Source: Chloroflexota bacterium
Lineage (GTDB): Bacteria > Chloroflexota > Dehalococcoidia > Lucifugimonadales > JACPQL01
Direction: 5' to 3'
Assembly (NCBI GenBank): GCA_016190445.1
Contig: JACPQL010000051.1
Location: forward strand, 38,505 to 102,504
Length of the DNA stretch: 64,000 bases
Under the pieces are notes generated by a model, which saw only the letters and a program-made list of their open reading frames with translations, was not told the DNA's origin and ran no database searches. Of this stretch, positions 1 to 24,237 are shown one piece after another; position 1 is the stretch's first letter; each line of letters begins with the position of its first letter. The position numbers and the translations under genes were made by a program.

Positions 1-44
1 GACCCCGCAGGGCCAGCGCCCACGACAATCAGATCGTAGTCCAT
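1..44 (-). CDS. 5' end of a FAD/NAD(P)-binding oxidoreductase (partial, runs off the window)
   Basis: The reverse strand reads ATG (44..42) then MDYDLIVVGAGPAG, a GxGxxG dinucleotide-binding N-terminus. A GAGGAAA purine run lies 9 nt upstream. Only 14 codons are visible. Confidence 0.4.
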   Translation of the reverse strand, partial: MDYDLIVVGAGPAG

Positions 45-132
45 CCCGTCTCGTTTCCTCTCTGTAATAGGATGGCAGCCACCGGGCGCGGCCACCGTAC
101 CCTACTTCGGCGGCCGCCACATTGCCCAAAGT

Positions 133-3100
133 TCACTCTTGCCCCGTTGGCCGCCGTACCAGACGCCGGTAGAGCAGATATGCCATTGCCGCCACGACAA
201 CTGTCACCAGGACGCCCGACAACGCCCACGCCCAGGCACCAAGCAAGCTCGACCTTGCCAGGACGGTGAAGGTCGCCGTCAGCTCTTCCACCGATACCTG
301 ATAGGTACCGGGCTGGTCGCGCACAATTGAAAAGGTCAGTGTCCGCCTCTCCCCTGCGTCCAGGGATACTCCTTGCACCGCCTCTGATACCCCGTTGACC
401 TCCAGAGTGACGGTGGTATCCCCTCTAGCATCGCCCCGGTTGCGCACCTCCAGCCGCGCCACCACCGGCTCGCCTGCCGGTGCCTCGCCTGGCTCCACGG
501 CTAGCCCGCCCAGAACAATGTCAGCGCGGGCCAGCGGCCTCACCAGGAACTCACCCCTCAGACCTTCAATCTCAACCACGTGACGGCCTGGACTCTCCGC
601 CTTTACACTAAAGCTCACTGGCACCGTGGCGAGCCCCGGCACCGAGAGCGGCCTCTCCTCCACAGGAAGCCCGTCCACGCTCAAGCGCACGGCGTACTCA
701 CCCTCAAGCTCACCCAGATTGGCCAGCAACACCCGCACTTGGACCAGGTCGCCCGGCCCTACCTCCCTGGGTGTCACATCCAGCCGGACCAGCTCAAAGG
801 TGGGCAGCGCCAGAGGGCGCGTCGCCAAAAACTGGGCTGTCCGCACCGACGCCACAGAGCCGCCCTGAGGAGTAACCACTAACTCCACGTTATGCAGGCC
901 AGGGGTGTCCACAGATATAGTCGCGGTGAAAGCGCGTAGCTCGCCTGGGTTTAGGGACACAGCACCCTCATCCCTCACAACGTCGTTGATTTTGAGCAAC
1001 ACCGTGCCATTCAACAGCCTTCCGGTCACGTTCTGGACCTCGGCCAGCACCGTCACGGGCGTGCCCCCGGGGGCGACCGCCGGCTCTACCATGAGCGACA
1101 TGACCACCAGGTCCGTTGGTGGCCTCAGCGCCACCTTGAACACATCCTTTAGCCCGTCCACCCTCACCGCGTAGCTTCGGGTATCCTGGCGCTGCACCTG
1201 AAAGGTCACCGGAATGAGGGTAAGCCCCTCCACACGCACCGTCCGCTCGGCCACAGTGGCCTCGTCAATCCACAGCCGCACCGTGTGCTCGCCCGGCTCT
1301 TCCCCCACGTTGGCCAACAGCACACGCACGGTCACAACCTCCTGCGGCCTGGCCAACGCTGGCCGCACCTCCAGCTCTCTCACCTCCAAGGCGGCAGGCC
1401 GGGGAGGGCGCGCCACCTCCAGCTCCCCGCGCAGGCCAGCCAGCCCCACCCTATAGGTGCCAGCGGCCCTGGGGACAAACCGGAACTCCACTCGCGTGGC
1501 GCTGGGGGCCTCAACGTATTGCCGGGACACCTGCATGGGCACACCATTCACCTCCAGCTCTAGCCACACCAGCCTGTCCGCCCCGCTGGCGTTAAGCACC
1601 AGGGCAGAGACAACCACCGGCTCACCCACCAGAGCGGTGAGTGGTGAGATGCGCAGCTCCTGGAAACCGGTCTGCCCTGGAGCCGCTGCGGGTGCCACGC
1701 GCAGGAACCTCTGCACGCCCTCCACCTCCAGGCGGTACAGGCCCGGACGCGGCGCCACGAAAGTGAACCGGGCCACCGCGCCGCCGTCTGCCCTGGCCTC
1801 CAGGGGTCGTGCGTCTGCCAACTCCCCGTCCACGCGCAGGAGCAGATTGACGGCAGGCCGGGTCCCAGAGTCTCCCAACCCCGCCTCGACACGCACCGGC
1901 TCCCCAGGCTCAGCCACCTGGGGCGAAAGGGTCACCTTAGACACGGCTATCTGAGGAAAGTCGGCCATGCTCACTATAGCCACAAACTCATCGCCGGGCA
2001 CGTTGGGCCCTGCCGCCTCCAGCAGAACGCGCCCCTGAGGGTCATCTCCCAGAGAGCGTAGCTCCATAGGGGCGGCGCCCTCCTTGCCAATACGCACGGC
2101 ACGCAGCTCCCCCAGGCCACCGCTGCGCTCCACCAGTTCGGGGGCCACCGCCAGCAGCGTGCGGGGTTGGGCCCCGGCAGGAAGGTTGCGATGGGCAGCA
2201 CGCACCGCCAGTGCTACGCTGGACACCGTCTTGCCCTGCTGTCGGGCCAGCACTTCAAGGGCGGCACTGGCCCAGCCCGGAAGGTCCACAGTGGGCGTGA
2301 GGTGCAGGAGGCCGTTGGTGGGAAAGCCACTCAGCTCCACCCCCAGGCCCACACCCACGCGCTCCTTGAACCCGTCCTCCCGGGACAAGACCGCATCCCG
2401 CATCTCCGCCTCCACCAATGCCGCATGGACCCTGACCGTGACCAAGCCCTCTCCAGTCACCTGGGCTCCCTGGGCCAAGACCCGGCCAACCACCTGGTAC
2501 AGCGGCCCGCGCAATGGAAGCTCCACCCGACCATCCTGGAAAGCCACTCCGGAGATAGGATCATGAAAGGAGGCCATGGCTTGACCCGGCTTCAACGCCA
2601 CAGGAAAGAGAAAGTCCAGCCCGCCCTGGGCCACAGTTGCTACCACGACGGCATCACCCACGATAGGCAGAGGTTGTCCCTCCGCATCCAAGGCCGACGC
2701 CATCGCGGTGCTGATGGGGACACGAGGTGGGAGGGGCAGGTCCACAACAGGGGCCGCCACCTGGAAATCACCTGTGAGCCCCTCCATGCTGACGGCGTGC
2801 GCCCCCACTTGCGTATCGCGCACGGGCAACACCATCTCTCTGCTCTCCCCAGGCTGGAGCACGCCCTCTATGCGCCTTTCCACCTGGCCATTCACCATGA
2901 GGGTGGTGCGAAAGCGGCCCACCGACATCCCCAGGTTCCGGGCCCTAACGGTGACCTCCACCGGCTGGCCAGGCACCACCGTCGAGGGGCGTACCACGAG
3001 GTCCGAGAAGACGATCTCGGAGGAGAACACCCGGAACACGTCCATCTGGCTGCCCACCTGGACAACGTAGCTATCGGGGATGGGCCTGACCACTCGGCCC

Positions 3101-3444
3101 GCTAGAATGCGGCCAGCCCCGCCAGGAAGCTCCCCGGTCCAGCGGTGCTCCACCACTCCATTTACCAGCAGCGGCACCGAGTACTCCCGGGCCGAAGAGC
3201 CGTAGTTGCGAAGAGTAGCCCGTACCTCGACAGGCTCTCCAGCGGGCACCTCATGGGGTGAGACAGAGACATCGGTGACGGCGATGACCTCGGCCTGGGC
3301 AGAGGATTCCAGAGGAGGGGCCAGCGAGGCAGCAAGTGCCTGGCCTGGCGACGACCCTGGCCCAAGTAGAGTGGCCCCCAGCAGAAGGGCGGCGCCCGCT
3401 ATCAGCCTGCGCCTGATGAAACACAGCCCCGGCTGCCACGTCAC
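133..3444 (-). CDS. Large surface protein made of repeated CARDB-like beta-sandwich domains with a C-terminal TM anchor
   Basis: ORF 133..3603. I place the start at GTG 3444, which forms a GTGA overlap with the stop of the upstream gene and directly precedes a signal peptide (RRRLIAGAALLLGATLLGPGSSPGQALA). About 100-aa units recur (V.V.A.L.N.G...G.Y.V.L.V.G). The C-terminus is hydrophobic, ending in LLYRRLVRRPTGQE. Confidence 0.8.
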   Translation of the reverse strand: MTWQPGLCFIRRRLIAGAALLLGATLLGPGSSPGQALAASLAPPLESSAQAEVIAVTDVSVSPHEVPAGEPVEVRATLRNYGSSAREYSVPLLVNGVVEHRWTGELPGGAGRILAGRVVRPIPDSYVVQVGSQMDVFRVFSSEIVFSDLVVRPSTVVPGQPVEVTVRARNLGMSVGRFRTTLMVNGQVERRIEGVLQPGESREMVLPVRDTQVGAHAVSMEGLTGDFQVAAPVVDLPLPPRVPISTAMASALDAEGQPLPIVGDAVVVATVAQGGLDFLFPVALKPGQAMASFHDPISGVAFQDGRVELPLRGPLYQVVGRVLAQGAQVTGEGLVTVRVHAALVEAEMRDAVLSREDGFKERVGVGLGVELSGFPTNGLLHLTPTVDLPGWASAALEVLARQQGKTVSSVALAVRAAHRNLPAGAQPRTLLAVAPELVERSGGLGELRAVRIGKEGAAPMELRSLGDDPQGRVLLEAAGPNVPGDEFVAIVSMADFPQIAVSKVTLSPQVAEPGEPVRVEAGLGDSGTRPAVNLLLRVDGELADARPLEARADGGAVARFTFVAPRPGLYRLEVEGVQRFLRVAPAAAPGQTGFQELRISPLTALVGEPVVVSALVLNASGADRLVWLELEVNGVPMQVSRQYVEAPSATRVEFRFVPRAAGTYRVGLAGLRGELEVARPPRPAALEVRELEVRPALARPQEVVTVRVLLANVGEEPGEHTVRLWIDEATVAERTVRVEGLTLIPVTFQVQRQDTRSYAVRVDGLKDVFKVALRPPTDLVVMSLMVEPAVAPGGTPVTVLAEVQNVTGRLLNGTVLLKINDVVRDEGAVSLNPGELRAFTATISVDTPGLHNVELVVTPQGGSVASVRTAQFLATRPLALPTFELVRLDVTPREVGPGDLVQVRVLLANLGELEGEYAVRLSVDGLPVEERPLSVPGLATVPVSFSVKAESPGRHVVEIEGLRGEFLVRPLARADIVLGGLAVEPGEAPAGEPVVARLEVRNRGDARGDTTVTLEVNGVSEAVQGVSLDAGERRTLTFSIVRDQPGTYQVSVEELTATFTVLARSSLLGAWAWALSGVLVTVVVAAMAYLLYRRLVRRPTGQE

Positions 3445-4139
3445 GCCAACAGCCCTTGCCCCACCGCCTCCCCCACTTCCCGCAGGTCCTTGGCGGTGTC
3501 CACTGCCCGCCAGAAGCCACCACACCTCAGGCCGAGCAGCCGATGCTGGGCAGCCAGAAGGGGAAACGTCTCGGTCTCGTGGTCCCCCACCTTCGGGAGC
3601 CACTCTGTGATCCCCCGGGAGAGGACATAGATGCCGCCGTTAATCCAGTACGGCAGGCGGGGCTTCTCCTCGAACCCACGAATGGTGCCCTCCTCCGACA
3701 CGTCCACGACGCCGAAGGAACTCCACAGAGGTGCCAGAAGCAGCGTGGCCATGGCTCCCGCCTTGGAGCGGTGAAGCTCCAGCATGGGTGCCAGAGGCTG
3801 GGTAGTCAGCACATCACCGTTGGTGGCGATCACCTCCTGCACGTCACCTGGAAGGGCCTCCAGGCCGCGCCTGATAGCGCCGCCTCGCCCCAGGGGAGTC
3901 TCCTCCACCAGGTAGTCCATCTTCAGTCCCACGCCAGCGCCGTCGCCGAAGTAGTCTGCGATTACCTCATGCAAGTACCCGCAAAGGAAGGTAACATGGC
4001 TTACACCGTTCAGTCGCAGCCAGTCCACATGGTAAGCCAGGATGGGCCTGCCACAGACCTCCACCATGGGCTTGGGCCTGCTATCGGTATGAGGGCGAAG
4101 ACGCTCGCCACGACCCCCAGCTAGTACCAGCGCGTGCAT
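3441..4139 (-). CDS. Sugar-1-phosphate nucleotidyltransferase (NTP_transferase family)
   Basis: The N-terminus MHALVLAGGRGERLRPHTDSRPKPMVEV matches the G-x-G-x-R-L-x-P...KP motif of glucose/mannose-1-phosphate nucleotidylyltransferases. Length is 232 aa. Confidence 0.85.
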   Translation of the reverse strand: MHALVLAGGRGERLRPHTDSRPKPMVEVCGRPILAYHVDWLRLNGVSHVTFLCGYLHEVIADYFGDGAGVGLKMDYLVEETPLGRGGAIRRGLEALPGDVQEVIATNGDVLTTQPLAPMLELHRSKAGAMATLLLAPLWSSFGVVDVSEEGTIRGFEEKPRLPYWINGGIYVLSRGITEWLPKVGDHETETFPLLAAQHRLLGLRCGGFWRAVDTAKDLREVGEAVGQGLLA

Positions 4140-5904
4140 CGAAAGACATTATAGTATCCGCCACACCCCTGGGCAACGAGACCGAAGCCCCGCTGCGGCG
4201 CACCTCGAAGAGCACCACCCGCTCCCACTTCGCCACCTCCTCAAACAGCTCCGGCTGGCCTCTTAGCTCGTCCAGGAAGGCCTGGGGGTGCTCCACTCGG
4301 TAGTAGTCAAACACCATCACATAGCGGCCCTCCAACTCGTCCAGCAACTGGTAGAGCCGCGGCCCGTCCGCCTCACCTGACCACATCATGTGGCGTATCT
4401 CCAGGACGGGCCGCCAGTTTCGGGCGCCCTCATCGTACCACCCGGCCACCACGGGGCGACCGGCGTAGTAGGGCACCAGAAAGTTGTCCCAGTGCCAGAA
4501 ACCAACTCCCAATACCCGGCCCTCAGTGCCGTTCTCCTCAAGCCACGAAAGTGCCTGGCGGACGGATGAGTCCACAACGTACGGCCGCATCAGCCGTTGA
4601 GAGGCCACCAGGGCATCCCGCAAGGGTATGACCATGAGCAGCGCCAGGGCCGCCAGAGCAAGGCCCACCAGCCACTCCCGGCGCCACCTCTGGCCCAGCG
4701 CCTGCTTCGCCTCCTCCCACACCCCCTGGAGCATGCCGACGCCCAGGATGATGAAAAAGGGTGCCGCGTACACGGGAAACCGCGCCACGTCCGTCCTATT
4801 AAACGGGGGAAGGCGGATCAGGGGATTCACCTGTTCACCCAGGCCCAGTGCCACCAGCACCAGGGCAGCCACCGCTGTGCCACTGAGACGCCCGGGGTGC
4901 ATCGCCGCCCACAACATGCCCCCGACCCCCAGGGCTAGGTGAACGATGCCCACGTATGAGGGATACGTGTACTTCCCTATGAAGCGCGGGTCAACCGGGG
5001 CCCGCACGAAAGCCTGAAGGGACACCGCCCAGAGCCCCGGCACCTCCCGCACGAAGTCCACCTGTGCCACCTGGCGCACAAAGAGGATCAGCCACCAGCC
5101 GCTCACCACGGCCGTGCCTGCGGCGAACAGCCCCGCCGCAAGCACCAGCTCCCGAGGGCGATATACCCTGGCCACCAGGTAGAAGGCCCCCCATGCCAGC
5201 AGGGCAACGCCCACCCCGAAGGAGGTCGTATGATGGGTCAGGACCACGAGCCCAAAGACAACCCCCGCCACCACCGTCAGCCGCCGGCTCCGGAGACGCA
5301 ACCCTCGCTCCAGAAGGGCCCAGGACACGATGGCAAAAGGCAGGGCAGCCACGGTGGTGTACCATCCCCAGAGCCCCACGCCCGTCATCACGGGGTAGGC
5401 CGCCACCGCCATGAGGCCAGCCAGGGTAGCCAGAAGCCTGGACACACCCATCTCCAGGGCCAGATAGTAGACGGCCAGGCCAAGACCGGCGTAGGCCGCC
5501 AGGAGGGCCGCGGTGTAGGCCCCAGCCAGGCTCACGCCAGGCAGCAGGGCCAGCACAGCCACCAGGGTGTAGCTGAGGGGTGGATAGGCAAAAAGGGGGG
5601 AGAAGCCGCCATACCAGTACGGGTCGGTCAGGCCGCGCTCCGCCCCGGTGAGCAACCGGTTGACGAACCAGCTCATGTGCAGGAAGGTGGGTGTGTCGTT
5701 CCCAGGCGCAAACCCTGGCCGTAGCAGCGGCCAGGCCAGGAACAGGGAGAGGCCCACCACCAGGGCCATGCCCAGGCCGTGGGGACGCAGCACCCCTCCG
5801 AGGGAGCGGAGCCAGGCAACAAACACAGCAGCGAAACGCATCGGGAGCAGTTTAGCTGGTGCCGGAAGCAGCGGCAAGGAAAAACGGCGAAGAGGTCCTG
5901 CCAC
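4081..5904 (-). CDS. Polytopic membrane protein, GT-C-fold glycosyltransferase-like (PMT/ArnT/YfhO type)
   Basis: 607 aa. There are about 11 hydrophobic helices in the first ~400 aa, then a soluble C-terminal domain of roughly 190 aa. GTG start lies 6 nt after the stop of the giant upstream gene. The 3' end overlaps the nucleotidyltransferase start by 59 nt. The family call rests on architecture only. Confidence 0.55.
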   Translation of the reverse strand: MAGPLRRFSLPLLPAPAKLLPMRFAAVFVAWLRSLGGVLRPHGLGMALVVGLSLFLAWPLLRPGFAPGNDTPTFLHMSWFVNRLLTGAERGLTDPYWYGGFSPLFAYPPLSYTLVAVLALLPGVSLAGAYTAALLAAYAGLGLAVYYLALEMGVSRLLATLAGLMAVAAYPVMTGVGLWGWYTTVAALPFAIVSWALLERGLRLRSRRLTVVAGVVFGLVVLTHHTTSFGVGVALLAWGAFYLVARVYRPRELVLAAGLFAAGTAVVSGWWLILFVRQVAQVDFVREVPGLWAVSLQAFVRAPVDPRFIGKYTYPSYVGIVHLALGVGGMLWAAMHPGRLSGTAVAALVLVALGLGEQVNPLIRLPPFNRTDVARFPVYAAPFFIILGVGMLQGVWEEAKQALGQRWRREWLVGLALAALALLMVIPLRDALVASQRLMRPYVVDSSVRQALSWLEENGTEGRVLGVGFWHWDNFLVPYYAGRPVVAGWYDEGARNWRPVLEIRHMMWSGEADGPRLYQLLDELEGRYVMVFDYYRVEHPQAFLDELRGQPELFEEVAKWERVVLFEVRRSGASVSLPRGVADTIMSFDARAGTSWGSWRASSPSYR

Positions 5905-5910
5905 CTGGTC

Positions 5911-8900: not shown

Positions 8901-11900
8901 TGCCCGGGGAGACCGTCAGGCCCGAAAGGGTCAGCACGCCCACCGGAGTTGGCCCCGGGCCTGGGCCAGGGCCCGGCCCCGGCCCAGCCGCAGCCTGGAT
9001 ATCGAAGGCCAGGGAAGCCGTGACACTGCGGTTGGCCGCCTCGTCAACGGCGCGGACGGCGAAGGTGTGAGAGCCCACCGCTAGCGCCGTGGACACCGTG
9101 GTGCTGGTCACATCCCCAACGTTCACAAAGGCGCCGCCATCTACGCTGGTCTCATAGCTCACCACGTCGGTGGAGGCGGAGGCGTCCCAGGCGAAGCTGG
9201 GGGTAGTCACCGTGGCCGCCGACGTGCGGCGCAAGTTCGTGGGTGGCGCCGGCGGAGTGGCGTTCACGGTGAACGCCTTGGCCGCCGAGGCGCTGCGGTT
9301 GCCCGCCCTGTCCACCGCTCGCACAGCGAAGCTGTGGGCCGCATCCGACAGGGCCGTGGTCAGCGTGGTGCTCAGCACCAGTCCAATATCCTGGAAGGCT
9401 GCACCATCCACGCTGGTTTCATAGCTGACCACGTCGCTGGAAGTGGAGGCGTCCCAGGCAAAGCTGGGAGTGGCGTCGGTCGTCAACGACGTGTCCACCA
9501 CCAGGCTAGTGAGCCGCAAGTTAGTCGCCGGAGCGGGCGCCACCAGGTCCACAGTGAAAGCAAGAGAGGCATTCGGGCCCGTGGTGCTCTGGGTGTTGGT
9601 GGCACGAACCTGCACTGTGTGCGGCCCATCCGCCAGGGGGTCCCCCGCTGTCACACCAATGCGCGCCTGGAGCACGTTCCCTATGTTCTGGAACGCACCA
9701 CCATCTATGGCTATTTCGTAGAAGGCTATGGTCCCCGTCAGGCCGGTGGGCGGCTGCCAGACCACTAGCGGCGTGCTGGTGTTCACGAAAACGGCAGGCG
9801 GCTCCAGTCGAAGACCCTGCGGCGCGCCCGCCGGCGACGCTGCCAGTTGGAACACGAGCTCCGCCGGCACACTCCTGTTCCCGGCCTTGTCCACCGCCTC
9901 GACCTCCAGCTTGTATGTCCCATCGGCCAGAGGAGGTGTGGGCCCAAAGTTGAGCCCGGTCGTCTCGTCCGACAGCAGCTTGGTTTCACCGCTCCATATC
10001 TCCACGTGGTAGAAGGCGACCCCTATGTTGTCCACCGCCGCGTCCCACGCGAACGCAGGGGTGGAGGTGGTAGCTGGAGTAATCATCCGCAGGTTCGCGG
10101 GCGGCTGCGGTGGTGTCGTGTCCACAGTGAAGGTGAGGGAAGCCGCCGCGCCAATGGCCGCCAGGTTGTTGACTGCCAGCACCTGCACAGTGTGCAGTCC
10201 GTCCGCCAAGGGGCTCCCCACCGTCACCCCGATCCGCGCCTGGAGCACGTTCCCTATGTTCTGGAATGCCCCACCATCAATGGAGAACCCGTAGAAGGCA
10301 ACAGTCCCGGTAATCACTAGAGGTGGCTGCCAGACCACCAGCGGCGTGCTGGTGGTCACATAGACCGCAGGCGGCTCCAACCTCAGCCCCTGAGGCGCCT
10401 CCGGAGAGGCCACCGTGATGGTGAACACCAACTCGGCGATGGCACTCCGGTTCCCGGCCTTGTCCACCGCCACCACCTGCAACTTGTATGTCCCATCGGC
10501 CAACTGAGCCGTCGGCCCAAAGGTAAGCCCCGCGGTCTGTCCCGACAGGACCACCGTGGCACCGCTCAGCACCTCCACCAGGTAATGCGAGACCCCAATG
10601 TTGTCCACCGCTGCGTCCCACGCGAACGCCGGAGTGGAGATGGTGGCTGGGGTGGTCATCCGCAGGTTCGTGGGTGGGCCCGGCGGCGTTACGTCCACCG
10701 TGAAGATGAGGGAGGCAACCGGACCCGTGGTCCCCAGGTTGTTGGTCGCCCGGACCTGCACCGTGTGCTGCCCATCCGCCAAGGGACTCCCCACTGTCAC
10801 ACCGATGCGCGCCTGGAGCACGTTTCCTATGTTCTGGAACGCCCCACCGTCAATGGATATCTCGTAGAAGGCTATGGTACCGGCGAGGCCCGTGGGCGGC
10901 TGCCAGACTACCAGCGGCGTGCTTGCGGCCACAAACACGGCGGGCGGCTCCAACCGCAGCCCCAAGGGCATGTCGTCTGGCCCCAGGGCCAGCTCAAACG
11001 CCTGCTCCGCGGGCGTGCTCTGGTTCCCCGCCAGGTCTACCGTGACCACCCGCAGGGTGTGCATCCCGTCGGTAAGGGCCGAGGTAGGCCCAAAGGTGAG
11101 CCCTGCCGTCTGGCCTGACACCACCACCTGGCCCAGCGTGAGGACCTCCACCAGGTAGTAAGAGACACCCACGTTATCCGTGGCGGCGTCCCAGGCGAAG
11201 GCAGGTGTGGAAGTCGTGGCCGGGGTGGTCATCCGAAGATTCGTCGGCGGATTAGGCAGCGTGAGGTCTATGTTGAAGCCCAGGCTGATGGTGGTGCTGG
11301 TGTTGCCCACGTTGTCCTGCGCCAGCACATTGAAAGTATGGGGCCCTGCTGCCAGGTCAGCGGCGGGCGCGATGCCCGTGGCGACCACAAACTGGGGCGC
11401 CGCCGCGTCAACCCACCACTGATAGCCCGCGATGCCACTCCCCGGCGCCGGGTCGCTGGCAGCAGGCCATGAGAAGCTCGGACGCGGGTCGTTGGTCGGC
11501 GAGGAGGGGACCATAGTAACAGGCCCGGCAAGAACAGGCGCCACGGTGTCAATAGTGAAGGCAACGGCGGCGGCAGGTCCCGTGGTGCCCAACTTGTCAT
11601 AGGCACGCACGGAGAAGGTATGCGGGCCATCGGCAACCGCGGCAGCGGGCTGGAAGACGGTCGCGGTCCCTATGGACGTGAAAACGCCGCCACCGGCCAG
11701 GTCTATGGCCACCTCGTAGCCGCCGATGCCCCCGGGCGTGGAGGATGGCGCGGTCCATGTGAAGATAGGCCGGGCCTCTCTGCTCACCGCCGCTGGCGAC
11801 ACCGCCAAGTCCCGCGGCTCCGACGGCGCGGCGAATGCCTCTACCGACAGGTCCAGCCGGGTGGAGCCGCCTGGCGTAAAGGTGGCGGTCCCCCCCAGCA

Positions 11901-12285
11901 GGCCCTCCACATACAGATTGACCCGCTCGCCCTCCCGGCCTCCCTCGCGCACCGCAGCCGTGTCCAGGTCATCGCCCGGAACGCGGAAAGCATCCGCCAC
12001 CCCGTAGGTGCCGCCCTCAGCAGTAATGCCACTGGCGAAGGTGCCCACCTCCACAAAGGAGCCGTCAGGCTGCTGTGCAGCCACCCTGGCAGTGATAGTC
12101 AGACCGGGAGGGGCCAGAGCGCCTCCCCTGAAAACGCTCTCACCTCCCACACCCCCGGTGATGGTGACGTGGCCGAAGAAGGCGTTGTCCGCAACAGGCA
12201 CCGCCCCCAGAGGCGAAACGAGGAGAAACACGGCGGTACCGAGGAGGGCCACCAGAGTAGTGCCAAGGACTATTACTCTACGCAC
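5911..12285 (-). CDS. Giant (2124 aa) secreted surface protein: Ig/FN3-like tandem repeats, PT- and GP-rich linkers, CARDB-like repeats, C-terminal TM anchor
   Basis: GTG start followed by a signal peptide ([28 protein letters not shown]). Near-identical ~190-aa repeats are present ([23 protein letters not shown]..., [11 protein letters not shown]...[24 protein letters not shown]). The C-terminal third has CARDB-like units. The C-terminus reads [32 protein letters not shown]. Confidence 0.85.
   Translation of the reverse strand: [2124 protein letters not shown]
8480..8990 (-). repeat. Low-complexity coding repeats inside the giant gene: Pro/Thr-rich linker (about 8480-8675) and a (Gly-Pro) run (about 8951-8985)
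   Basis: The protein reads [62 protein letters not shown] and [17 protein letters not shown]. The + strand shows ggcccngg-type periodicity and GVGVGV shadow ORFs. Confidence 0.85.
9050..11270 (-). repeat. Tandem coding repeats, period about 573-582 bp (three two-domain units), then two shorter ~270-bp single-domain units
   Basis: Shadow ORFs on the + strand recur at 11180, 10598, 10025, 9443 and 9170 with near-identical peptides (ASHANAGVE.VAGV.IRRF.GG). The sense-strand protein repeats are visibly more than 80 percent identical. Boundaries are approximate. Confidence 0.75.
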
Positions 12286-12542
12286 CGAGCACCGGCTTCA
12301 TCGTTGCTGCCACCCACTGCTCCCAACCTTCAACTACAAAGGAGAGCCCTCCTTGACGGACGCTCCTGTGCAGGGTAGCCATTGGCCAAGGAGGACTCTC
12401 TAACAAGCTACTACCGCCGGGCCCCACATCCCGGCCTTCCGGCCGCTTTGTGGGCCCCACCCATCCTCACACCCAGCCTAGGACTCTCTCGGCTCCTATT
12501 TTTCTTAGTCGCACTCTCTTCACGAGCAGGCACACCCCGCCG

Positions 12543-15500
12543 CTACGGCGTGATCACGCCCGCCAGTGTGAAGAGCCAGAAGCCCTCCCCAGGATTGGAG
12601 TTATCCGTCTCGGTCAGCCGACGGAACACGCCAAGATATATCTGCAACTCCGCACCCTCCTCAAAGGGGAACACGATCTCGTTATCATAGGTGAGCAGGG
12701 AGGACCACTTCACCGTGGGCACTGTGAGGCCGCGGAGGAACTGGCTTACCAGCACCGTCTTCTCCGAGTGCAGGCCCACCAGGTTCCAACCGTCCACCAC
12801 ATTGAAGGTGGGCGGGACAGCGCCAGGAGCCAGGAACTGACCGCCAATGGTCGCCTTTATGGGAGCCGGCGTGCCCGTTGCCCCTGGCAGCAGGGCCTCT
12901 GACTGCTTGAACACCCGTACTGGCCTGGCGCCGGGCGTCCCGTCTATGACCGCCTGGGTCCCTGTCGCCCCGGCGTTGTTGATCCAGATCACATCTCCGG
13001 TGGCGGGATTCTTCAAGAACTCTCGCGCCCTTACCCAGAACCCGTTGCCCACGTTCCACTTGTTGGGCGGCGCAGCGGTGAACTCCACGTCGTCAAATGG
13101 GTCCACGGTGGAGTCCAGCGGGCTGGCGGTGAAGTAACCTTTGAACGCGCCGACCCCGGAAACACCACCACTCCACCAGGTCACAGACTCCACTACGTGC
13201 TTCAGCTTCACCGTGCTGATACCGGTGACCGCCTGGAAGTCTGGATTGACGTTAGGCACCACCTGCTCCAGCACCTCCGCCACCGTATCGTAGCTCGCGT
13301 CGGGCTGAAGAGGCATAGAGACCAGGTTAAAGCCAGGCATCAGGTAGATGTTGAACGCTTGCAACGTAGCGACGATAACCGCCTGCACCTGCCCCACAGC
13401 CACGTTGCCGGAGGCATCCGTAGCCTTGATGTTGAGCGAGAAGGTGCCGGGCGGCGTCCCTGAAGGCACCAGGATAGGCAACACGTAGTTGGCCAACAGG
13501 CTAATTTGCCACTGGTCTCTCACGGCTCCAGGTATGTTGGCCACCGGCTCCAGGGCCTGCGTGGTGCCGCTACCGGGCAACACGAACTCCACCGTCTTCA
13601 CCCCGCTGAAGTCATCCGCTGCCGTGACCTGGAAGACCACCGGGTCCTTCTGCCGCGCCGAGATGTTACCCACCGGGTAGATCACCGGCAGTACGGTCAG
13701 GGTTGGTGCAGTCACGTCCAGCACCAGGATCAGATCCGCGCAGCCAAACAGGCCGCCCTTGTCCTCCATTACCGCCATCACCAGGTTGTACCCTGAGCCC
13801 AGGGAAACGATCTGCGAGAACGTGGTGGTGGCATCGAAGACCTTCTTGCTGAACACGGGCTTCTCAAGCAGCCCCAGACTACTGATCAACGTGTTCAGCG
13901 AGGTCGCCTCGGCGGCAGTGATCTTCCCGTCAGCGCAGGTAGACCGCCGCAGCGCCTGCACCTGTGCCACCGCGCTGCTGGACGAGGAGGTGACAATGCT
14001 CATGTCCAACTGCTTCGGGTTGTCCTCCACATAGCTACCGCTCACCGTCTCCGCGGGTGTCTTAGTGGGATACACCACCAGCGCGCCCAGCATGGTGGAC
14101 GACAGGGCCACCGACAGAGTCACCTGGGGCGGCTTGCTGTCCAGGTACACCGTGTTTGTCTTGGTCGCAAGGAGGATGGGATCATAGGCTTTCCTGGTAG
14201 CGCTGGCGGTGACCGCGTTTTCGCCCTCCGCCAGAGGGAACTTGGCGGTGAACAGGAGCTGGCCCGGGTCCGCGGGGTCCACGTTCACGGTGATGTCACT
14301 CGCCGCCACGAAACCCGCGCCCAGCACCTTCACGTCGTCTACCAGCCAGCCTCGCCCATCGTTGCCCCAGGGGTCCCAGCTATCGAACAGGAACCGTATG
14401 AAGCCAGTCTTCCCCACCTGGCTGCTCAGGTCCAGGGTCACAGCCACCAGGTCTGGGGCTGGCATGGGGCCCGCGACCCAGAAGTTGGGGATAAAGACCA
14501 CAGCCCACGACTTGCCAGGAAGCGAGTCTGGAGGGTAGACCTTCCCCGGCTGCGGGAACTCGCCCGGCGCAGGCGGGACCGGCGGGAAGTCAATGATCTG
14601 GGCCAGGGTGGTGCATGCGCCACCCGTCTCGCAGAACTGTATGAGCTTGCGGTCAAACTGGTCGCCGCCTTCGGTATCGTACCAGGTCTTGAACTCCAGG
14701 CTAGTGCCCTGGATGGTCATGGTCGCGGTGTCCAGCGCCCCCGCGTTGGCAAAGCCTGGCGTGTTGAAGCTGTTCTGGGGCTCGATGCCGTAGTACCAGA
14801 GAGGGTTGCCGGGCGCGTCATCGCCCGGGGCCACGACAGTGGTCGCGTGCCACAGGGAAGGCTCCGACGCCGGACGGTACGAGAATGGCGCCCCTGGCCC
14901 CCCGCCAATGACGCTGCTCTTCCCGTACTGGGCCACATCCGGGGCGCTTATGGAGCCCGGCGTGCCCAGGGTAGATGCCCCGGTCTTGGCAGGATTACCG
15001 AACAGTACAGTCTCAGGAAGCAGTACCCCGACCACTACGTCCGTGGTGGCCACCGAGGGGTCGTTGACGGTGCCAGTGACCGGGATCTTGCCGCCCACCA
15101 GCTCAGGGGAGTCCGGCGTGAAGGCAGCGCCGTCCGCGGGAGAGGTGATGGTCACCGCGAACTCCTCCGGGGTGACCTTCCTCACTTCAAAGCTCTTGGC
15201 CTGGCTCACGGGGGCCTCACCAGTCACGTTGGCGATGAGGGTGGCAGTCCAGAGGCCAACGGAGGTCTTCTCCACCACCGCTCCGGGCTTGAACCCCTTG
15301 TACACCGCGGGGGGAAACTCGTAGATATCCGCGTAGTAGAGGACGTTGCCGTCCACCCCCAGGCCTTCTACTCCAGAAGGAGGAGCAGGGGCCATGAAGC
15401 CCTGGAGGAAGTTGACCGGCGGCGTGACGTCCGTGGGGTCAATGACCTGGAACGTTTGCCCCTTCATGATGAACAGGTTGCTACCCACTGTAGCCGCATC

Positions 15501-17357
15501 TGCACCCACGGCCTGGATGTCCGGGTTCGGGTCGCCAGGAGGCCCGTTCACCTTCACCGATTGGATGACGTTGCCCGTGGCGGGGTTGATAACGTGGTAC
15601 TCGGTAAAGGAGTAACCGCCACCGAAGTCATAGCCCGCGGACTCCTCCACCGCCAGTATGTTGCCGCCATACGTGGCCAGGGCGCCGATGGCGTCCACGT
15701 CCGTGCCGCTCACTGCCAGGATAACGGGCGTGGTGGTAAGCGTTCCTCCAGACAGGATGGCGAACTTCCACAAGCTGGGTGGGTAGGTCGAGTTGTCCGC
15801 CAGGTACAGGTTGCTCCCCACCACCGTCGCCCCTTTAATCTGGTCGGAGGAGGTGCCTGCGGCGGTGATCACCTCCACCGTCTGGAGGAGCCCAGTGCCC
15901 GTGCCCACCACCGCGTTGGGGTCCACCACCTGGGCCGGGTCAATCACCTCCACGAAATCGGCAGGCGCACCGTCCACCGCCACATAGAGTGGGCTGGAGG
16001 CGCCTGCCAGGGCGTGAGGTGTGGGGGTGGGCGGTGAGGCCGCGGCAGGAAGCACGCTGTAGTACAGCTTATCGGTGTCGCCGTCCGCGAAGATGAGCCT
16101 GCCGAGCGTGGCATTGTACGCCACACCTTCCAGGTCCGTCAGACTCACCGTCGCCGTAGATAGCGTGGAGCCGTCCCCGGGGTTCTGGAACACCACCCGG
16201 TTGCCCCCCACGCCGACTACGGCACCTATGTAATAAGGCTCGAAGGCCATACTGCTGTAGCCATCGGCACCGCCGAAAACGGCCAGCGGCGCGCTCCAGA
16301 CCGTCGGCGCAAAGGGGTCCCAGAGAAGCGGGTCCTCAAGGTAGACCGGCGCGCTCCCAGGCGGCGTCCGGAGGCCACCCAGCACCAACTGGCCCGCCCA
16401 CGGATCAAAGGCCATGCCGCCAGTGGGCGAGGCCACCGGCGAGTCAACCGGGTACGCCTGGCCGTCCAGGAACCCCATGGGGAACCCGGTTGCCGGGTCC
16501 AGCGCCTCCACCTTCATAAGCCCGCCATCCAGGTACGAGACGAAGAGGACGGGCGTCACTCCACCCACCAGCCCAAAGGTGATCGCCTGGGCCTGGTCGT
16601 TGGGGGCATCGGCCCAGCCTATCAGCGAGCCGTCAAACTCGTTCAGCGCCAGGATCTTGTCGGGCTGCCCCACATCCCCCTGCACCAGCAGGAACAACTC
16701 CCCTGCCGCGTCGTAGGAGGTCAGGTCAATGGGCTCCGTCGTCGCACCTGCCGCCAGGGGTATTTCCGCGAAGAGCTTGACCTTGGGGAGCACGTCGCTG
16801 GGCACTGGCGTCGCAAGGCGGAAGGCCAGCGGCTTGTTCGGCTCGTTGGGGAAAGGCAACTCCACCGGCACAGGGTACTTCTTGATAGGGGGCTTGAACT
16901 TCAGCGTGTACTTGATCTTGCCCGTGATGCCAGGGGGAACGTAGCCGTACCCGTATCCTCCTGGTGGCACCACAATGTCCTCATAGGTTACGGTCACGCT
17001 CAGCGTCCCCAGGGGGTTGCCGCTCCCGTCCTTGGGAAGCGAGCCGGTCATGTCCGTGGTCCCAGGGACCATCGGCAGAGCGAGGTTGCTCAAGAAAGCG
17101 GCAAAGGGACTGGGGCCCGCAACGGTCAGCTTAACGGAGGTAAGAGCCAGAAACTCGGCAGGGTCCACAGTGACCGTGCCATTGAGAGTCACAACCTCGT
17201 TCAACTTGTACTGAGGAGGCGCTCCTGCCTTGGTGGTACCCAGCGTGACCCCGGAACCCAGGGCCGGCCCCGCAGCTAGCAGCAAAGCGAGGATAATACC
17301 TAAAGTGACCGCTACCGGACCGAGGACCCGACTCCGCCGCCAGATACTTTTCCTCAT
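12543..17357 (-). CDS. Large secreted multidomain surface protein (beta-propeller-like repeats, MAM/InhA-like beta-sandwich, Ig-like domains)
   Basis: ORF 12543..17432. I prefer ATG 17357 (MRKSIWRRSRVLGPVAVTLGIILALLLAAGPALG), which has an AAGGAAGG RBS 6 nt upstream. Motifs recur (LYYSV, LYVAVDG, SNLYLADNS, NVLYYADIY). The block LEFKTWYDTEGGDQFD...GFIRFLFDSWDPWGNDGRGWLVDDVKV resembles MAM or immune-inhibitor-A type domains. No C-terminal TM anchor. Confidence 0.7.
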   Translation of the reverse strand: MRKSIWRRSRVLGPVAVTLGIILALLLAAGPALGSGVTLGTTKAGAPPQYKLNEVVTLNGTVTVDPAEFLALTSVKLTVAGPSPFAAFLSNLALPMVPGTTDMTGSLPKDGSGNPLGTLSVTVTYEDIVVPPGGYGYGYVPPGITGKIKYTLKFKPPIKKYPVPVELPFPNEPNKPLAFRLATPVPSDVLPKVKLFAEIPLAAGATTEPIDLTSYDAAGELFLLVQGDVGQPDKILALNEFDGSLIGWADAPNDQAQAITFGLVGGVTPVLFVSYLDGGLMKVEALDPATGFPMGFLDGQAYPVDSPVASPTGGMAFDPWAGQLVLGGLRTPPGSAPVYLEDPLLWDPFAPTVWSAPLAVFGGADGYSSMAFEPYYIGAVVGVGGNRVVFQNPGDGSTLSTATVSLTDLEGVAYNATLGRLIFADGDTDKLYYSVLPAAASPPTPTPHALAGASSPLYVAVDGAPADFVEVIDPAQVVDPNAVVGTGTGLLQTVEVITAAGTSSDQIKGATVVGSNLYLADNSTYPPSLWKFAILSGGTLTTTPVILAVSGTDVDAIGALATYGGNILAVEESAGYDFGGGYSFTEYHVINPATGNVIQSVKVNGPPGDPNPDIQAVGADAATVGSNLFIMKGQTFQVIDPTDVTPPVNFLQGFMAPAPPSGVEGLGVDGNVLYYADIYEFPPAVYKGFKPGAVVEKTSVGLWTATLIANVTGEAPVSQAKSFEVRKVTPEEFAVTITSPADGAAFTPDSPELVGGKIPVTGTVNDPSVATTDVVVGVLLPETVLFGNPAKTGASTLGTPGSISAPDVAQYGKSSVIGGGPGAPFSYRPASEPSLWHATTVVAPGDDAPGNPLWYYGIEPQNSFNTPGFANAGALDTATMTIQGTSLEFKTWYDTEGGDQFDRKLIQFCETGGACTTLAQIIDFPPVPPAPGEFPQPGKVYPPDSLPGKSWAVVFIPNFWVAGPMPAPDLVAVTLDLSSQVGKTGFIRFLFDSWDPWGNDGRGWLVDDVKVLGAGFVAASDITVNVDPADPGQLLFTAKFPLAEGENAVTASATRKAYDPILLATKTNTVYLDSKPPQVTLSVALSSTMLGALVVYPTKTPAETVSGSYVEDNPKQLDMSIVTSSSSSAVAQVQALRRSTCADGKITAAEATSLNTLISSLGLLEKPVFSKKVFDATTTFSQIVSLGSGYNLVMAVMEDKGGLFGCADLILVLDVTAPTLTVLPVIYPVGNISARQKDPVVFQVTAADDFSGVKTVEFVLPGSGTTQALEPVANIPGAVRDQWQISLLANYVLPILVPSGTPPGTFSLNIKATDASGNVAVGQVQAVIVATLQAFNIYLMPGFNLVSMPLQPDASYDTVAEVLEQVVPNVNPDFQAVTGISTVKLKHVVESVTWWSGGVSGVGAFKGYFTASPLDSTVDPFDDVEFTAAPPNKWNVGNGFWVRAREFLKNPATGDVIWINNAGATGTQAVIDGTPGARPVRVFKQSEALLPGATGTPAPIKATIGGQFLAPGAVPPTFNVVDGWNLVGLHSEKTVLVSQFLRGLTVPTVKWSSLLTYDNEIVFPFEEGAELQIYLGVFRRLTETDNSNPGEGFWLFTLAGVITP

Positions 17358-17681
17358 TAGAGCCTTCCTTAGCTTGCTCCAGGAACTGCACCCCAGGACC
17401 ACCCCCCCACCCACAATAGTGATACCCATCACCTATGCATTCGGCTTGGCAGCTTACGCTCCCAAACCCCCACTGTCAAGCGCCCCTGGGCACAAGAAGG
17501 CGTTCCATTCCCCGTGCGTCGCCAGATTCCCAGGGCGATCAGCCACTGCCACCGCCAGCAGCTACTCCAAAACTCCCTCGGGGTCCCAGGCCAGGGCCTC
17601 TCCCCAACGTAGCATCGTCCTGCCCTGCGAGCACTACGCCCAACGGCGCCAGTGCTCCCGGGCGTGGGCCTCTTGGCACTG

Positions 17682-18143: not shown

Positions 18144-18469
18144 TTCTCACCTCCGGCAGTGCAGCATCCTACCCCCGTACTCCGCACGTGTCAACGCACT
18201 TGAGCAGCGACTTTGGGCGATTGGAGAGTGTTATCCGTACCTCGGCAGGACTCCCACGCCTTCACCCACACCGAAAAGGAACGGAAAGCGCCCGGACCGT
18301 TTGCCCTCCGCCTGGGACGCTGGCCATGGTATACTTATGAGCCGGTGCTATTTCTGATGACAAGCAGGAGAGTCAGCGCGCGTGGCCCCCTCCGGTCGAG
18401 GAAGGCCAACTGAAATGCCAAGCCCCCCCTCCCCCCGGCGTGGTCTTGCCTCAAAACCCAAGGAAAGTG

Positions 18470-18511
18470 CAGAGAACCAAGGTTCTCTGCCGGGGTCTGG
18501 GGTGTCCCCAG
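18470..18511. repeat. REP-like hairpins in the lrp/ccmH divergent intergenic region
   Basis: cagagaacc-aa-ggttctctg (18470..18489) and ctgggg-tgt-ccccag (18497..18511). The reverse complement (atctggggacaccccagaccccggcagagaacc) closely matches 37513..37547 (atctgggggacacccccagacccccgccagagagg). Confidence 0.6.
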
Positions 18512-24223: not shown

Positions 24224-24237
24224 CCCTCCCTGCCTGC

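Follow-up and report, generated by a model that had tools for sequence, protein, structure and literature searches.

A Dehalococcoidia gene string with an oligosaccharyltransferase-like GT-C protein and anchored CARDB surface proteins: possible elaboration of a conserved envelope operon

A minus-strand string of five genes at positions 133-17357 of the window (the whole 64,000-nt stretch of Chloroflexota DNA that was analysed) may be the elaborated, lineage-specific form of an envelope operon that is conserved in Dehalococcoidia and uncharacterised. In this reading, which we prefer but hold tentatively, the operon would be centred on an outward-facing, oligosaccharyltransferase-like GT-C protein, and the co-encoded envelope proteins would be its likeliest acceptors. 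The argument starts from the fold, topology, gene content and synteny of the locus, which are established below. The features of the region, in window coordinates, are as follows.

1-44, minus strand: first codons of a gene for an FAD-dependent geranylgeranyl-reductase-like protein, cut by the window edge (contig L007 continues past it)
133-3444, minus strand: p1103, a type-I membrane-anchored surface protein (PF07705 CARDB, E 5e-24; annotated 'hypothetical', HYY00_08810)
3441-4139, minus strand: short (232 aa) sugar-1-phosphate nucleotidyltransferase (PF00483, E 3.6e-29, residues 3-224)
4081-5904, minus strand: integral membrane protein of predicted GT-C fold, PF10131 (PTPS_related) family, from homologue profiles, an AF2 model and Foldseek
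4148-4176, minus strand: sigma-70-like promoter match TTGCCC-17-TATAAT, a consensus match only, reaching to 8 nt before the nucleotidyltransferase ATG and lying inside the GT-C coding sequence
5911-12285, minus strand: p2124, a composite surface protein (Big_13, E 5e-50 in 6 stretches; CARDB, E 3e-34; fn3)
5911-8472, minus strand: residues 1272-2124 of p2124, a paralogue of p1103 and of the GT-C protein's conserved CARDB partner, from tblastn
8473-8679, minus strand: PT-rich linker of p2124 (residues ~1203-1271), with 25 of 30 residues P or T at its peak, the sole strongly PT-rich segment in the cluster
9504-11295, minus strand: three tandem 573-nt (191-aa) double Ig-domain units in p2124 (repeat families D1 and D2, spacing 573 nt, 63-80% identity)
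12543-17357, minus strand: p1604, a near-orphan that has a signal peptide but lacks a C-terminal anchor (no profile match above family cutoff)
17682-18143, minus strand: Lrp/AsnC-family regulator (PF13404, E 6e-14; PF13412; PF01037, E 2e-11)

All five consecutive open-reading frames described in the initial annotation are present, with products of 1103, 232, 586 or 607, 2124 and 1604 aa, and the three giant proteins, put at about 4,800 aa, sum to 4831 aa. The p1103 frame begins at a GTG that overlaps the upstream stop codon (maximal frame to 3603), the GT-C frame encodes 607 aa from a GTG or 586 aa from the ATG at 5841 annotated by NCBI, and p1604 has 1604 aa in a maximal frame that extends to 17432. 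The NCBI call for p1604, at 1553 aa, would be without the signal peptide. Direct reading of the sequence bore out both of the close junctions described initially, namely a GTGA coupling at 3441-3444, where the start GTG of p1103 (3444-3442) overlaps the TGA stop of the nucleotidyltransferase gene (3443-3441), and a 6-nt gap (gaccag, 5910-5905) between the TAA stop of p2124 (5913-5911) and the GTG of the GT-C gene at 5904. The GT-C frame also runs 59 nt (4081-4139) into the start of the nucleotidyltransferase gene, and a gap of 257 nt (12286-12542) separates the p1604 gene from the other four, so that it may be its own transcription unit. Sigma-70-like consensus matches numbered 4 in the region against 1.5 expected. 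Integrity of the frames was checked with Logan contigs from three SRA runs, which are 100% identical to positions 1-9691 and 10237-18474 of the window and thus show no frameshifts over those positions; positions 9692-10236, within the threefold 573-nt tandem repeat, are supported by the MAG assembly alone. The short-read contigs break inside this repeat array of p2124, at 9691 and 10237. The source organism is a groundwater Chloroflexi bacterium. A horizontally transferred genomic island was considered and found no support, the GC content of the region (0.62-0.68) being that of the window as a whole (about 0.62-0.68), and no mobile-element genes were found among the adjoining genes examined.

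The membrane protein of the string is, on its AF2 model (pLDDT 86.5, pTM 0.87), of GT-C fold. Secondary structure in the model, taken with the positive-inside rule, places 11 transmembrane helices with the N-terminus inside and the C-terminus outside, in agreement with the approximately 11 helices counted initially. The first external loop spans residues 41-104, an alpha/beta C-terminal domain of ~130 aa is extracytoplasmic, and the last ~36 residues are a non-conserved read-through into the next gene. In a Foldseek search of the PDB the 39 best matches were all GT-C proteins, as were all 26 matches at E <= 1e-3, with the oligosaccharyltransferases STT3, AglB and PglB at the top (E 9e-11 to 2e-9, TMq 0.54-0.63) and the glycan- or lipid-modifying enzymes AftA, AftD, ArnT and Emb among the further significant matches. 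The window's own protein matches no Pfam family, even at E <= 1, and so lacks the GT-C profile signature whose absence the initial annotation had named as a refutation, but 24 of its 34 homologues (32-48% identical) match PF10131 with a best E of 1.6e-16, and this result and the uniformly GT-C structural matches override the silence of the single sequence. PF10131 is a member of the GT-C clan CL0111 and is of unknown function (PMC7801869). PMT_2 was matched by one of the 34 homologues (E 1.8e-5) and PF02516 (STT3) by none of them, a Pfam scan found no PMT or MIR domain in the window's protein, and PDB sequence searches with the protein and with its family profile returned no glycosyltransferase, the one match being at chance level (E 0.95). 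The conserved residues all lie in outside loops or in the outside C-terminal domain: D49 (GVDTP), conserved in at least 90% of the 34 homologues, and the invariant D73 (DPYWYGG), both present in the window's protein, as well as the invariant H203/H204, R265/E266, D351/R354 and W468-x-D470-E471-G472. The invariant motif of the C-terminal domain is G-W-x-D-E-G, about 15 residues after F-W-H-W-D.

Loci carrying the GT-C gene were compared among 27 Dehalococcoidia and Chloroflexota species over the available flanks of up to 10 kb. A 545-aa Ig-like lipoprotein (Ig544) is encoded next to the GT-C gene in 16 of the 27 and a CpsB phosphatase in 14, and a CARDB surface protein of 1000-1160 aa, the orthologue of p1103, is found there in 8. 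In 8 species a single operon encodes CpsB, GT-C, Ig544, VanZ and the CARDB protein, its genes separated or overlapping by 1-4 nt, the GT-C proteins of these species being 43-46% identical to that of the window, and the adjacency of GT-C and Ig544 persists where the GT-C protein is only 38-41% identical. Each of the 14 Ig544 proteins examined has a lipobox-like Cys and, after it, a tether rich in S/T/P/G. The GT-C protein and p1103 are plausibly tied in function, since 8 related species keep orthologues of both genes close together in the same operon. Synteny, a check suggested at the outset, bears out the pairing of GT-C with a CARDB protein (8 of 27 loci) but not that with the nucleotidyltransferase, the N-terminal part of p2124 or p1604, each of which was found next to the GT-C gene in 0 of 27. 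In the organism studied here, contig L007, which is 100% identical to window positions 1-9691, carries genes for an Ig544 lipoprotein, CpsB, an h229-like protein and DUF4012 just past the left edge of the window, the CpsB_CapC assignment resting on PF19567 (E 9e-47). Ig544, CpsB, h229 and DUF4012 are the conserved core of the cluster. This core lies outside the window and was not part of the initial annotation.

The CARDB, Big and fn3 domains anticipated for the giant proteins were found in p1103 and p2124. Scores for PF07705 were 84.9 bits in p1103 and 117.6 bits in p2124 against a gathering cutoff of 22.7 bits, and an iterated HMM counted 8 CARDB-like units in p1103 and 7 in p2124 (residues 1120-2082). 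p1103 consists of a signal peptide, 2 CARDB-like units, a central domain of ~270 aa, 6 further CARDB-like units, a C-terminal transmembrane helix and a basic tail. In p2124 a signal peptide is followed by an N-terminal domain, Big_13/fn3-type Ig repeats, one CARDB unit, the PT-rich linker and a paralogue of p1103, itself composed of 2 CARDB units, the central domain, 4 CARDB units, a transmembrane helix and a basic tail. The C-terminal half of p2124 shows 34% identity to p1103 across 823 aa, and in tblastn the CARDB proteins of three relatives (L002, L004 and L006) matched window positions 8478-6034 at 30-31% identity over ~820-835 aa; p1103 shares about 30% identity, across ~960 aa, with the operon CARDB protein (~1000-1160 aa) of the 8 Dehalococcoidia species. 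The C-terminal helix and basic tail are common to p1103, p2124 and all 8 p1103 orthologues, indicating that p1103 and p2124 are membrane-anchored rather than freely secreted. The initial description of the giants as secreted therefore holds for p1604, with its signal peptide and no anchor, but not for p1103 or p2124.

The PT-rich linkers had been proposed as the glycosylation substrates, a proposal that finds no support, since the linker occurs in p2124 only and none is present in the conserved partner p1103 or its 8 orthologues. A 42-nt tandem repeat at 8492-8623, the sole find of TRF, falls in this linker. N-X-S/T sequons are not enriched, numbering 3 in p1103 and 1-4 in each of the 8 orthologues against ~2 expected from Asn and Ser/Thr content. 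Pfam searches found no SLH domain, and a PDB sequence search with p1103 gave no match. The archaeal surface-protein domain TIGR04213 (PGF-pre-PGF) was matched by 15 of 50 relatives of the p1103/p2124 central domain, with a best E of 5.9e-8, and by neither p1103 nor p2124 themselves at E <= 0.01; a poor AF2 model of this domain (pLDDT 56, from a 2-sequence alignment) gave no Foldseek match at E <= 1e-3. The CARDB repeats, the central domain with some relatives that match TIGR04213, the transmembrane helix and the basic tail of p1103 and p2124 recall archaeal S-layer-type glycoproteins (CARDB/COG1361, PGF-pre-PGF, C-terminal anchor), but the proteins described here are bacterial, fall below the TIGR04213 threshold and have no PGF-CTERM or archaeosortase signal.

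The sugar-1-phosphate nucleotidyltransferase was correctly recognised at the outset, with LAGGRGERL at residues 6-14 as the N-terminal G-G-x-G-x-R motif. By sequence it is closest to the catalytic domain of GDP-mannose pyrophosphorylase (mannose-1-phosphate guanylyltransferase), the best PDB matches being 7whr, GMPPB (7d72_K) and 7x8j (E 1e-28 to 1e-30, residues 1-218) and the best NCBIfam match man1P_GTase_Rv (E 6.6e-44). That match scores 150 bits, below the 440-bit cutoff, and the protein ends at residue 232 with the C-terminal left-handed beta-helix domain of mannose-1-phosphate guanylyltransferases absent, so the sugar specificity is a putative one. The enzyme had been described as dedicated to the locus, and this is not supported, given its absence from all 27 GT-C loci and the 80 loci that carry its relatives, none of which has a GT-C, CARDB, Ig544 or CpsB gene; the neighbours of those relatives are unrelated, though some of the relatives have a second NTP_transferase and a GHMP kinase beside them. 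Enzymes of the GT-C superfamily are known to draw on donors linked to polyprenyl phosphate and not on nucleotide sugars. A bridging DPM1/GtrB-like GT2 was not found in the window by tblastn, nor did Pfam detect a flippase or other glycosylation genes among the remaining window genes, and the direct supply of activated sugar to the transferase proposed earlier is not supported.

The assignment of p1604 to the glycoprotein system could not be maintained either. No Pfam or NCBIfam model matched it above the curated cutoff, the weak sub-cutoff matches being Ig-like (Big_7 and an OmpL47-type barrel, E about 1e-3), and a PDB sequence search gave no match. Its one detectable homologue (P0043, with 30% identity across 69% of the query) lies in an unrelated context without a GT-C gene, and at the 27 GT-C loci p1604 is represented only by a 163-aa patch in L030. 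The Lrp/AsnC-family regulator is confirmed by PF13404 and PF01037 and precedes p1604 by 324 nt on the same strand, with a sigma-70-like site beside it at 18194-18166 (a consensus match only). This adjacency recurs neither at the locus of the p1604 homologue nor at any of the 27 GT-C loci.

For the GT-C protein we infer catalytic activity, donor type, sugar identity and acceptor as follows. The 11-helix PF10131-family protein would be the enzymatic centre, with its conserved polar residues facing outward, and by analogy with characterised GT-C enzymes it would pick up its sugar or glycan on the outside face of the membrane, where a polyprenyl-phosphate carrier presents it, and pass it to an extracytoplasmic acceptor. 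The likeliest acceptors would be the membrane-tethered p1103 (CARDB/pre-PGF-like), the paralogous module of p2124 and the lipoprotein Ig544; none of the tests that were run identified an acceptor. In this organism the GDP-mannose-pyrophosphorylase-like gene appears to be an insertion that separates the GT-C gene from p1103, and its product plausibly boosts the cytoplasmic nucleotide-sugar pool that would feed a lipid-linked donor via a GT2 whose gene lies elsewhere. In p2124, the N-terminal half with its Ig repeats and the PT linker would be lineage-specific additions, and p1604 is probably an unrelated neighbour.

A comparable route exists in actinobacterial protein O-mannosylation, in which GDP-mannose is used by the polyprenyl-phosphate-mannose synthase Ppm1 and the mannose is then transferred by the GT-C enzyme Pmt (GT39) to Pro/Thr-rich linkers of secreted proteins and lipoproteins. 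The window resembles this system in that its GT-C gene adjoins a mannose-1-phosphate guanylyltransferase-like gene, Ig544 has an S/T/P-rich tether and p2124 a long PT linker, but differs from it in that the GT-C protein has no PMT or MIR domain (PMT_2 appearing in just the one homologue), Pmt structures match it less well (E 1.6e-4, TMq 0.44), the window has no Ppm1-like GT2 and the conserved partner has no PT linkers.

The acceptor could instead be a glycan or glycolipid, with the operon (CpsB, GT-C, Ig544, VanZ, CARDB, h229, DUF4012) building or decorating an envelope polysaccharide or lipoglycan and the Ig and CARDB giants serving as scaffolds or polymer binders, an arrangement that we consider possible if somewhat unlikely. 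AftA, AftD, ArnT and Emb are also significant structural matches, and the YfhO, ArnT, Emb and Aft enzymes act on teichoic acids, lipid A or arabinan. The neighbouring proteins carry neither a sequon nor a linker signature, and S/T/P-rich lipoprotein tethers are common and not a specific sign of glycosylation. CpsB_CapC (PF19567) is a capsule-regulating phosphatase family, and CpsB and DUF4012 are otherwise tied to capsule/EPS loci, DUF4012 being found beside a priming transferase and Wzz in a Bifidobacterium longum CPS/EPS cluster and linked to envelope polysaccharide in Gram-positives and Chloroflexi (PMC5412050, PMC6744442); this association leans toward a glycan, not a protein, acceptor. 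CpsB_CapC and DUF4012 genes flank the conserved Dehalococcoidia operon and are also present in Gram-positive capsule/EPS loci, but the priming transferase, flippase, polymerase, Wzz and BY-kinase of those loci are absent near the GT-C operon, and no priming phosphotransferase, Wzx/Wzy, Wzz, BY-kinase or cytoplasmic GT1, GT2 or GT4 lies within 10 kb in the loci with Pfam-annotated gene calls, namely L002, L004, L006 and, from this organism, L007. The best structural matches are, moreover, protein-modifying oligosaccharyltransferases, and the tightest neighbours of the GT-C gene are extracytoplasmic proteins.

Simple co-location, with adhesin-like or envelope giants lying by a housekeeping GT-C and a housekeeping nucleotidyltransferase and no dedicated link through glycosylation, strikes us as improbable. 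It would account for the 27 GT-C loci having neither p1604 nor the nucleotidyltransferase nor the N-terminal half of p2124, for the loci that lack Ig544 (11 of 27, flanks up to 10 kb) or the CARDB protein (19 of 27), and for the many unrelated contexts of the nucleotidyltransferase family, but not for the 1-4-nt packing of CpsB, GT-C, Ig544, VanZ and CARDB that recurs in 8 species at 43-46% GT-C identity, for the GT-C-Ig544 adjacency kept at 38-41%, or for the single overlapping gene string that holds the window's GT-C and p1103.

The window's GT-C protein matches the structures of STT3/AglB/PglB (GT66) along its entire chain (E 9e-11, TMq up to 0.63). Like them it has its N-terminus inside, a conserved Asp in a long first external loop and a conserved Glu in a flexible one (R265/E266 in the window's protein), and it ends in an extracytoplasmic alpha/beta domain in which a Trp-rich motif follows the first strand and which shows local profile similarity to theirs. 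In hhalign this domain aligned with STT3/PglB at Prob 60% and a pairwise E of 8.6e-5 over 45 columns only, the aligned piece being a helix-strand unit matched to the region just past WWDYG. A true bacterial STT3/AglB/PglB orthologue, transferring a lipid-pyrophosphate glycan en bloc to Asn sequons of archaeal-type surface proteins, would agree with these likenesses, with the position of FWHWD where WWDYG sits in oligosaccharyltransferases and with the resemblance of the partners to archaeal PGF-pre-PGF surface glycoproteins, but is very improbable given 11 helices rather than 13, a much smaller C-terminal domain (~130 aa), a W-x-W-D in which several family members have E, H or S in place of the Asp, leaving WWDYG unconserved, no sequence match to PF02516 or to PDB oligosaccharyltransferases, a full-length hhalign of the family with PglB at Prob 2.7%, and a sequon count in p1103 and its orthologues close to that expected by chance.

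Groundwater, sediments and the deep ocean are rich in Dehalococcoidia and related Chloroflexota, and the cell envelopes of these bacteria are poorly understood. Protein glycosylation has been seen in the phylum as O-glycans on a Chloroflexota archaellum, with the enzyme not identified (PMC12488501). Returning to the preferred reading of an envelope operon around an outward-facing GT-C, an extension of it, on which we would place little weight, is that the Dehalococcoidia PF10131-type GT-Cs form an unrecognised, oligosaccharyltransferase-related family of protein glycosyltransferases that decorates archaeal-style anchored surface proteins (CARDB and pre-PGF-like) and a partner lipoprotein. If the protein is not a protein glycosyltransferase, the locus is an ordinary envelope gene cluster. 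If it is one related to oligosaccharyltransferases, enzymes of that type would have a wider bacterial distribution, and if PF10131 proteins do decorate archaeal-style surface proteins, they would be the bacterial equivalent, in simply enveloped organisms, of the S-layer glycosylation that depends on AglB. The locus offers an uncharacterised GT-C family (PF10131) with defined extracytoplasmic partners and candidate catalytic motifs (D49, D73, H203/H204, R265/E266 and W-x-D-E-G), and so supplies concrete candidates for the acceptor, the enzyme and the targets of mutagenesis.

The sequence of the window, which comes from a groundwater Chloroflexi/Chloroflexota metagenome-assembled genome (MAG; window GC ~0.65), contained all five of the consecutive minus-strand open-reading frames (locus tags HYY00_08810 to HYY00_08830) that had been claimed in the initial annotation, and both claimed junctions were read directly, the GTGA overlap of start and stop at 3444-3441 and the 6-nt spacer at 5910-5905. 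NCBI annotates one of the genes as 'nucleotidyltransferase family protein' and the other four as 'hypothetical protein'.

Genes of the cluster and the shared central domain
133-3444, minus strand, p1103 gene, 1103-aa ORF
1915-2802, minus strand, ~270-aa central domain of p1103, shared with p2124
3441-4139, minus strand, nucleotidyltransferase gene, 232-aa ORF
4081-5904, minus strand, GT-C gene, ORF of 607 aa from GTG or 586 aa from the annotated ATG
5911-12285, minus strand, p2124 gene, 2124-aa ORF
7096-7995, minus strand, ~270-aa central domain of p2124, shared with p1103
12543-17357, minus strand, p1604 gene, 1604-aa ORF

The GT-C ORF overlaps the start of the nucleotidyltransferase ORF by 59 nt, with a tail that is non-conserved and of low confidence in the AlphaFold2 model, and the 2124-aa gene is preceded by a 257-nt gap. 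Short-read contigs from three SRA runs matched the window with 100% identity over 1-9691 and 10237-18474, so the large ORFs in these stretches are not frameshift artefacts, while 546 nt between them had no contig coverage. This segment belongs to a tandem repeat (3 x 573 nt, 9504-11295) in the 2124-aa gene. The independent contigs end within that repeat, at 9691 and at 10237, and the copy number of the encoded 191-aa double Ig units is therefore given by the MAG assembly alone. It is the sole assembly uncertainty of the cluster.

The large proteins p1103 and p2124 had been described as secreted; both are extracytoplasmic but, rather than being freely secreted, are type I membrane-anchored. In p1103, a signal peptide is followed by two CARDB-like domains, the central domain, and six further CARDB-like domains; the protein ends in a TM helix and a basic tail. 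In its N-terminal half, p2124 has an N-terminal domain and Big_13/fn3-type Ig repeats (Big_13 E 5e-50), then a single CARDB domain and a PT-rich linker of 70 residues, after which comes a full p1103 paralogue (two CARDB, central domain, four CARDB, TM helix; 34% identity across 823 aa). p1604 carries a signal peptide but lacks an anchor. It gave nothing above cutoff in Pfam or NCBIfam (weak Ig-like matches only, E about 1e-3), matched no PDB sequence, and has one detectable homologue, in an unrelated locus. Representatives of 50%-identity clusters include 394 relatives of the central domain, which defines a widespread uncurated domain; the best 150 of these relatives occur in proteins of 142-4218 aa. 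Among 50 sampled relatives, 10 carried CARDB and 15 matched TIGR04213 (PGF-pre-PGF, archaeal surface proteins), a model not reached by p1103 and p2124 themselves in the NCBIfam search; the C-terminal half of the domain appears distantly related to this archaeal domain.

The surface-protein cluster appears to end at about 17.4 kb. Adjoining it, within 18382-26188 (plus strand), are CcmH and CcmF for cytochrome c maturation and a gene for a thioredoxin-like protein, followed by the quinone-biosynthesis genes UbiA and UbiE, with COX1 and COX3 at 34834-37441 (plus strand); these genes suggest that the organism respires aerobically. From 39859 to 55482 (plus strand), eight paralogous SBP_bac_5 genes for solute-binding proteins stand in tandem (596-660 aa, pairwise identity 65-83%), followed by two ABC permease genes (55671-57500, plus strand) and a ninth SBP_bac_5 gene (57777-59522, plus strand). 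For binding proteins of the peptide/oligosaccharide type, this local expansion (39859-59522) is unusually large. An acyl-CoA dehydrogenase gene (59535-60716, plus strand) and three family III CoA-transferase paralogues (within 28606-31271 and 60691-62013, plus strand) are also present.

The membrane protein encoded between the nucleotidyltransferase and p2124 had no Pfam or NCBIfam match of its own in profile searches, a result that the initial annotation had named as speaking against a GT-C enzyme. It was outweighed by the homologue set, the profile matches of those homologues, and the fold. The protein has 36 homologues at 34-48% identity (all those named being Chloroflexi/Dehalococcoidia), and 24 of 34 homologues matched PF10131 PTPS_related (best E 1.6e-16), a member of the GT-C clan CL0111 listed without known function (PMC7801869). 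The AlphaFold2 model built from the family alignment was confident (pLDDT 86.5, pTM 0.87), and its best 39 Foldseek matches in the PDB were GT-C enzymes only, led by STT3, AglB, and PglB (E 9e-11 to 2e-9, TMq 0.54-0.63) and followed by AftA, DPY19, AftD, ArnT, and Pmt4. Helix positions and the positive-inside rule gave 11 TM helices, N-in and C-out, which placed all invariant polar residues in outside loops or the outside C-terminal domain: D49 (in GVDTP), D73 (in DPYWYGG), H203/H204, R265/E266 (in a flexible loop), D351/R354, and the motif W468-x-D470-E471-G472. In the model, this arrangement is the one that GT-C enzymes show, with the active site on the extracytoplasmic side, and the protein is a predicted GT-C-fold enzyme with its conserved site facing outward.

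With one genome scanned per GTDB species, 27 GT-C loci were found, all in Dehalococcoidia/Chloroflexota MAGs (GT-C identity 32-46%), and markers were counted in the available flanks, up to 10 kb per side of the GT-C gene.

Markers near the GT-C gene
Ig544, the ~545-aa Ig-like protein: 16/27 loci
CpsB_CapC phosphatase: 14/27 loci
h229, a ~230-aa protein: 10/27 loci
p1103-type CARDB protein (seven CARDB units and the central domain): 8/27 loci
VanZ: 8/27 loci
DUF4012: 8/27 loci
Nucleotidyltransferase: 0/27 loci
p2124 N-terminal part: 0/27 loci
p1604: 0/27 loci (one 163-aa patch in locus L030)

The eight species that have the CARDB protein share the gene order CpsB, GT-C, Ig544, VanZ, CARDB protein, and where called-gene coordinates were available the gaps or overlaps were a few nt, except for 50-140-nt CpsB-GT-C spacers in two loci. 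The constant order and close spacing indicate that this string is a single putative operon. In all Ig544 proteins examined, an S/T/P/G-rich tether comes after a lipobox-like Cys, and they are thus lipoproteins; they carry Big_1/Big_2-like repeats. Operonic linkage of the GT-C gene to genes for membrane-tethered extracytoplasmic proteins is conserved. A contig identical to window 1-9691 (L007) extends beyond window position 1, and there (L007 9648-15214) a FAD/geranylgeranyl-reductase-like gene is followed by Ig544 and CpsB_CapC (opposite strand), then by a homologue of h229 and the beginning of a DUF4012 gene. The conserved core is thus present in the window's organism but rearranged, with the nucleotidyltransferase taking the slot held by Ig544 and VanZ in relatives. 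A similar FAD/geranylgeranyl-reductase-like gene lies ~4 kb upstream of GT-C in two relatives (L010, L013).

The nucleotidyltransferase is a bona fide NTP_transferase, as had been called (PF00483 E 3.6e-29, LAGGRGERL motif). By sequence match, the named proteins closest to it are mannose-1-phosphate guanylyltransferases: man1P_GTase_Rv of NCBIfam matched at E 6.6e-44, far under the curated cutoff, and the PDB matches were 7whr, GMPPB 7d72, and 7x8j (E about 1e-29). Since it was assigned by best match under the cutoff and consists of the catalytic domain only, GDP-mannose is a presumptive product. The translational coupling of this GDP-Man-pyrophosphorylase-like gene to p1103 is confined to this lineage; none of 80 metagenomic loci with relatives (29-57% identity) held the cluster's other genes, the neighbours being unrelated genes or other sugar-activation genes. 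The closest of these relatives (L106 6808-9698, L117 2363-4060) adjoin a second, 325-aa NTP_transferase, in L106 also with a GHMP-family kinase, which looks like a sugar-1-kinase and nucleotidyltransferase salvage module and not a surface-protein locus. A sigma-70-like match (TTGCCC-17-TATAAT, 4148-4176, minus strand) lies within the GT-C gene at its 3' end, stops 8 nt short of the nucleotidyltransferase ATG (4139), and could give a near-leaderless transcript of the nucleotidyltransferase and p1103 independent of the GT-C gene; the position of this putative site favours the 232-aa start rather than the 208-aa one picked by one gene caller.

GT-C enzymes use polyprenyl-phosphate-linked sugar donors, and the window's enzyme would transfer a sugar from such a donor to an envelope acceptor. 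The nucleotidyltransferase, proposed earlier as the locus's own activated-sugar supply, could feed a lipid-linked donor only by an indirect route, via a GT2 enzyme and a flippase. Searches of the 64-kb window found neither. The likeliest acceptor is one or several of the proteins encoded alongside the enzyme. A serious competing reading has a glycan or glycolipid in that role, as CpsB and DUF4012 are otherwise associated with capsule/EPS (PMC5412050, PMC6744442). The suggestion that the enzyme's substrates are PT-rich linkers agrees only with p2124 and, in a loose way, with the Ig544 tether, but not with the conserved CARDB partner.

The GT-C protein resembles oligosaccharyltransferases more closely than other GT-Cs in three respects: they are its best fold matches, its C-terminal domain aligns locally with STT3/PglB just past WWDYG (profile-profile, Prob 60%), and it has F-W-H-W-D at the WWDYG position, after the first strand of that domain. 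A true oligosaccharyltransferase is countered by its 11 TM helices instead of 13, an Asp in the W-x-W-D motif that varies across the family, sequence-level searches without a match to STT3 or to PDB oligosaccharyltransferases, and sequons at chance level, with no enrichment, in p1103 and its orthologues. The protein was therefore filed as a GT-C with an oligosaccharyltransferase-like fold and not as a demonstrated oligosaccharyltransferase.

Overall, what the initial annotation observed was confirmed and its interpretation was borne out in part. The components are of known kinds, namely a GT-C enzyme, CARDB/Ig surface proteins, and a nucleotidyltransferase, and a literature search found no description of the operon and no function for PF10131. 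The novelty lies in a conserved combination specific to Dehalococcoidia and in an oligosaccharyltransferase-like GT-C variant with a motif set of its own.
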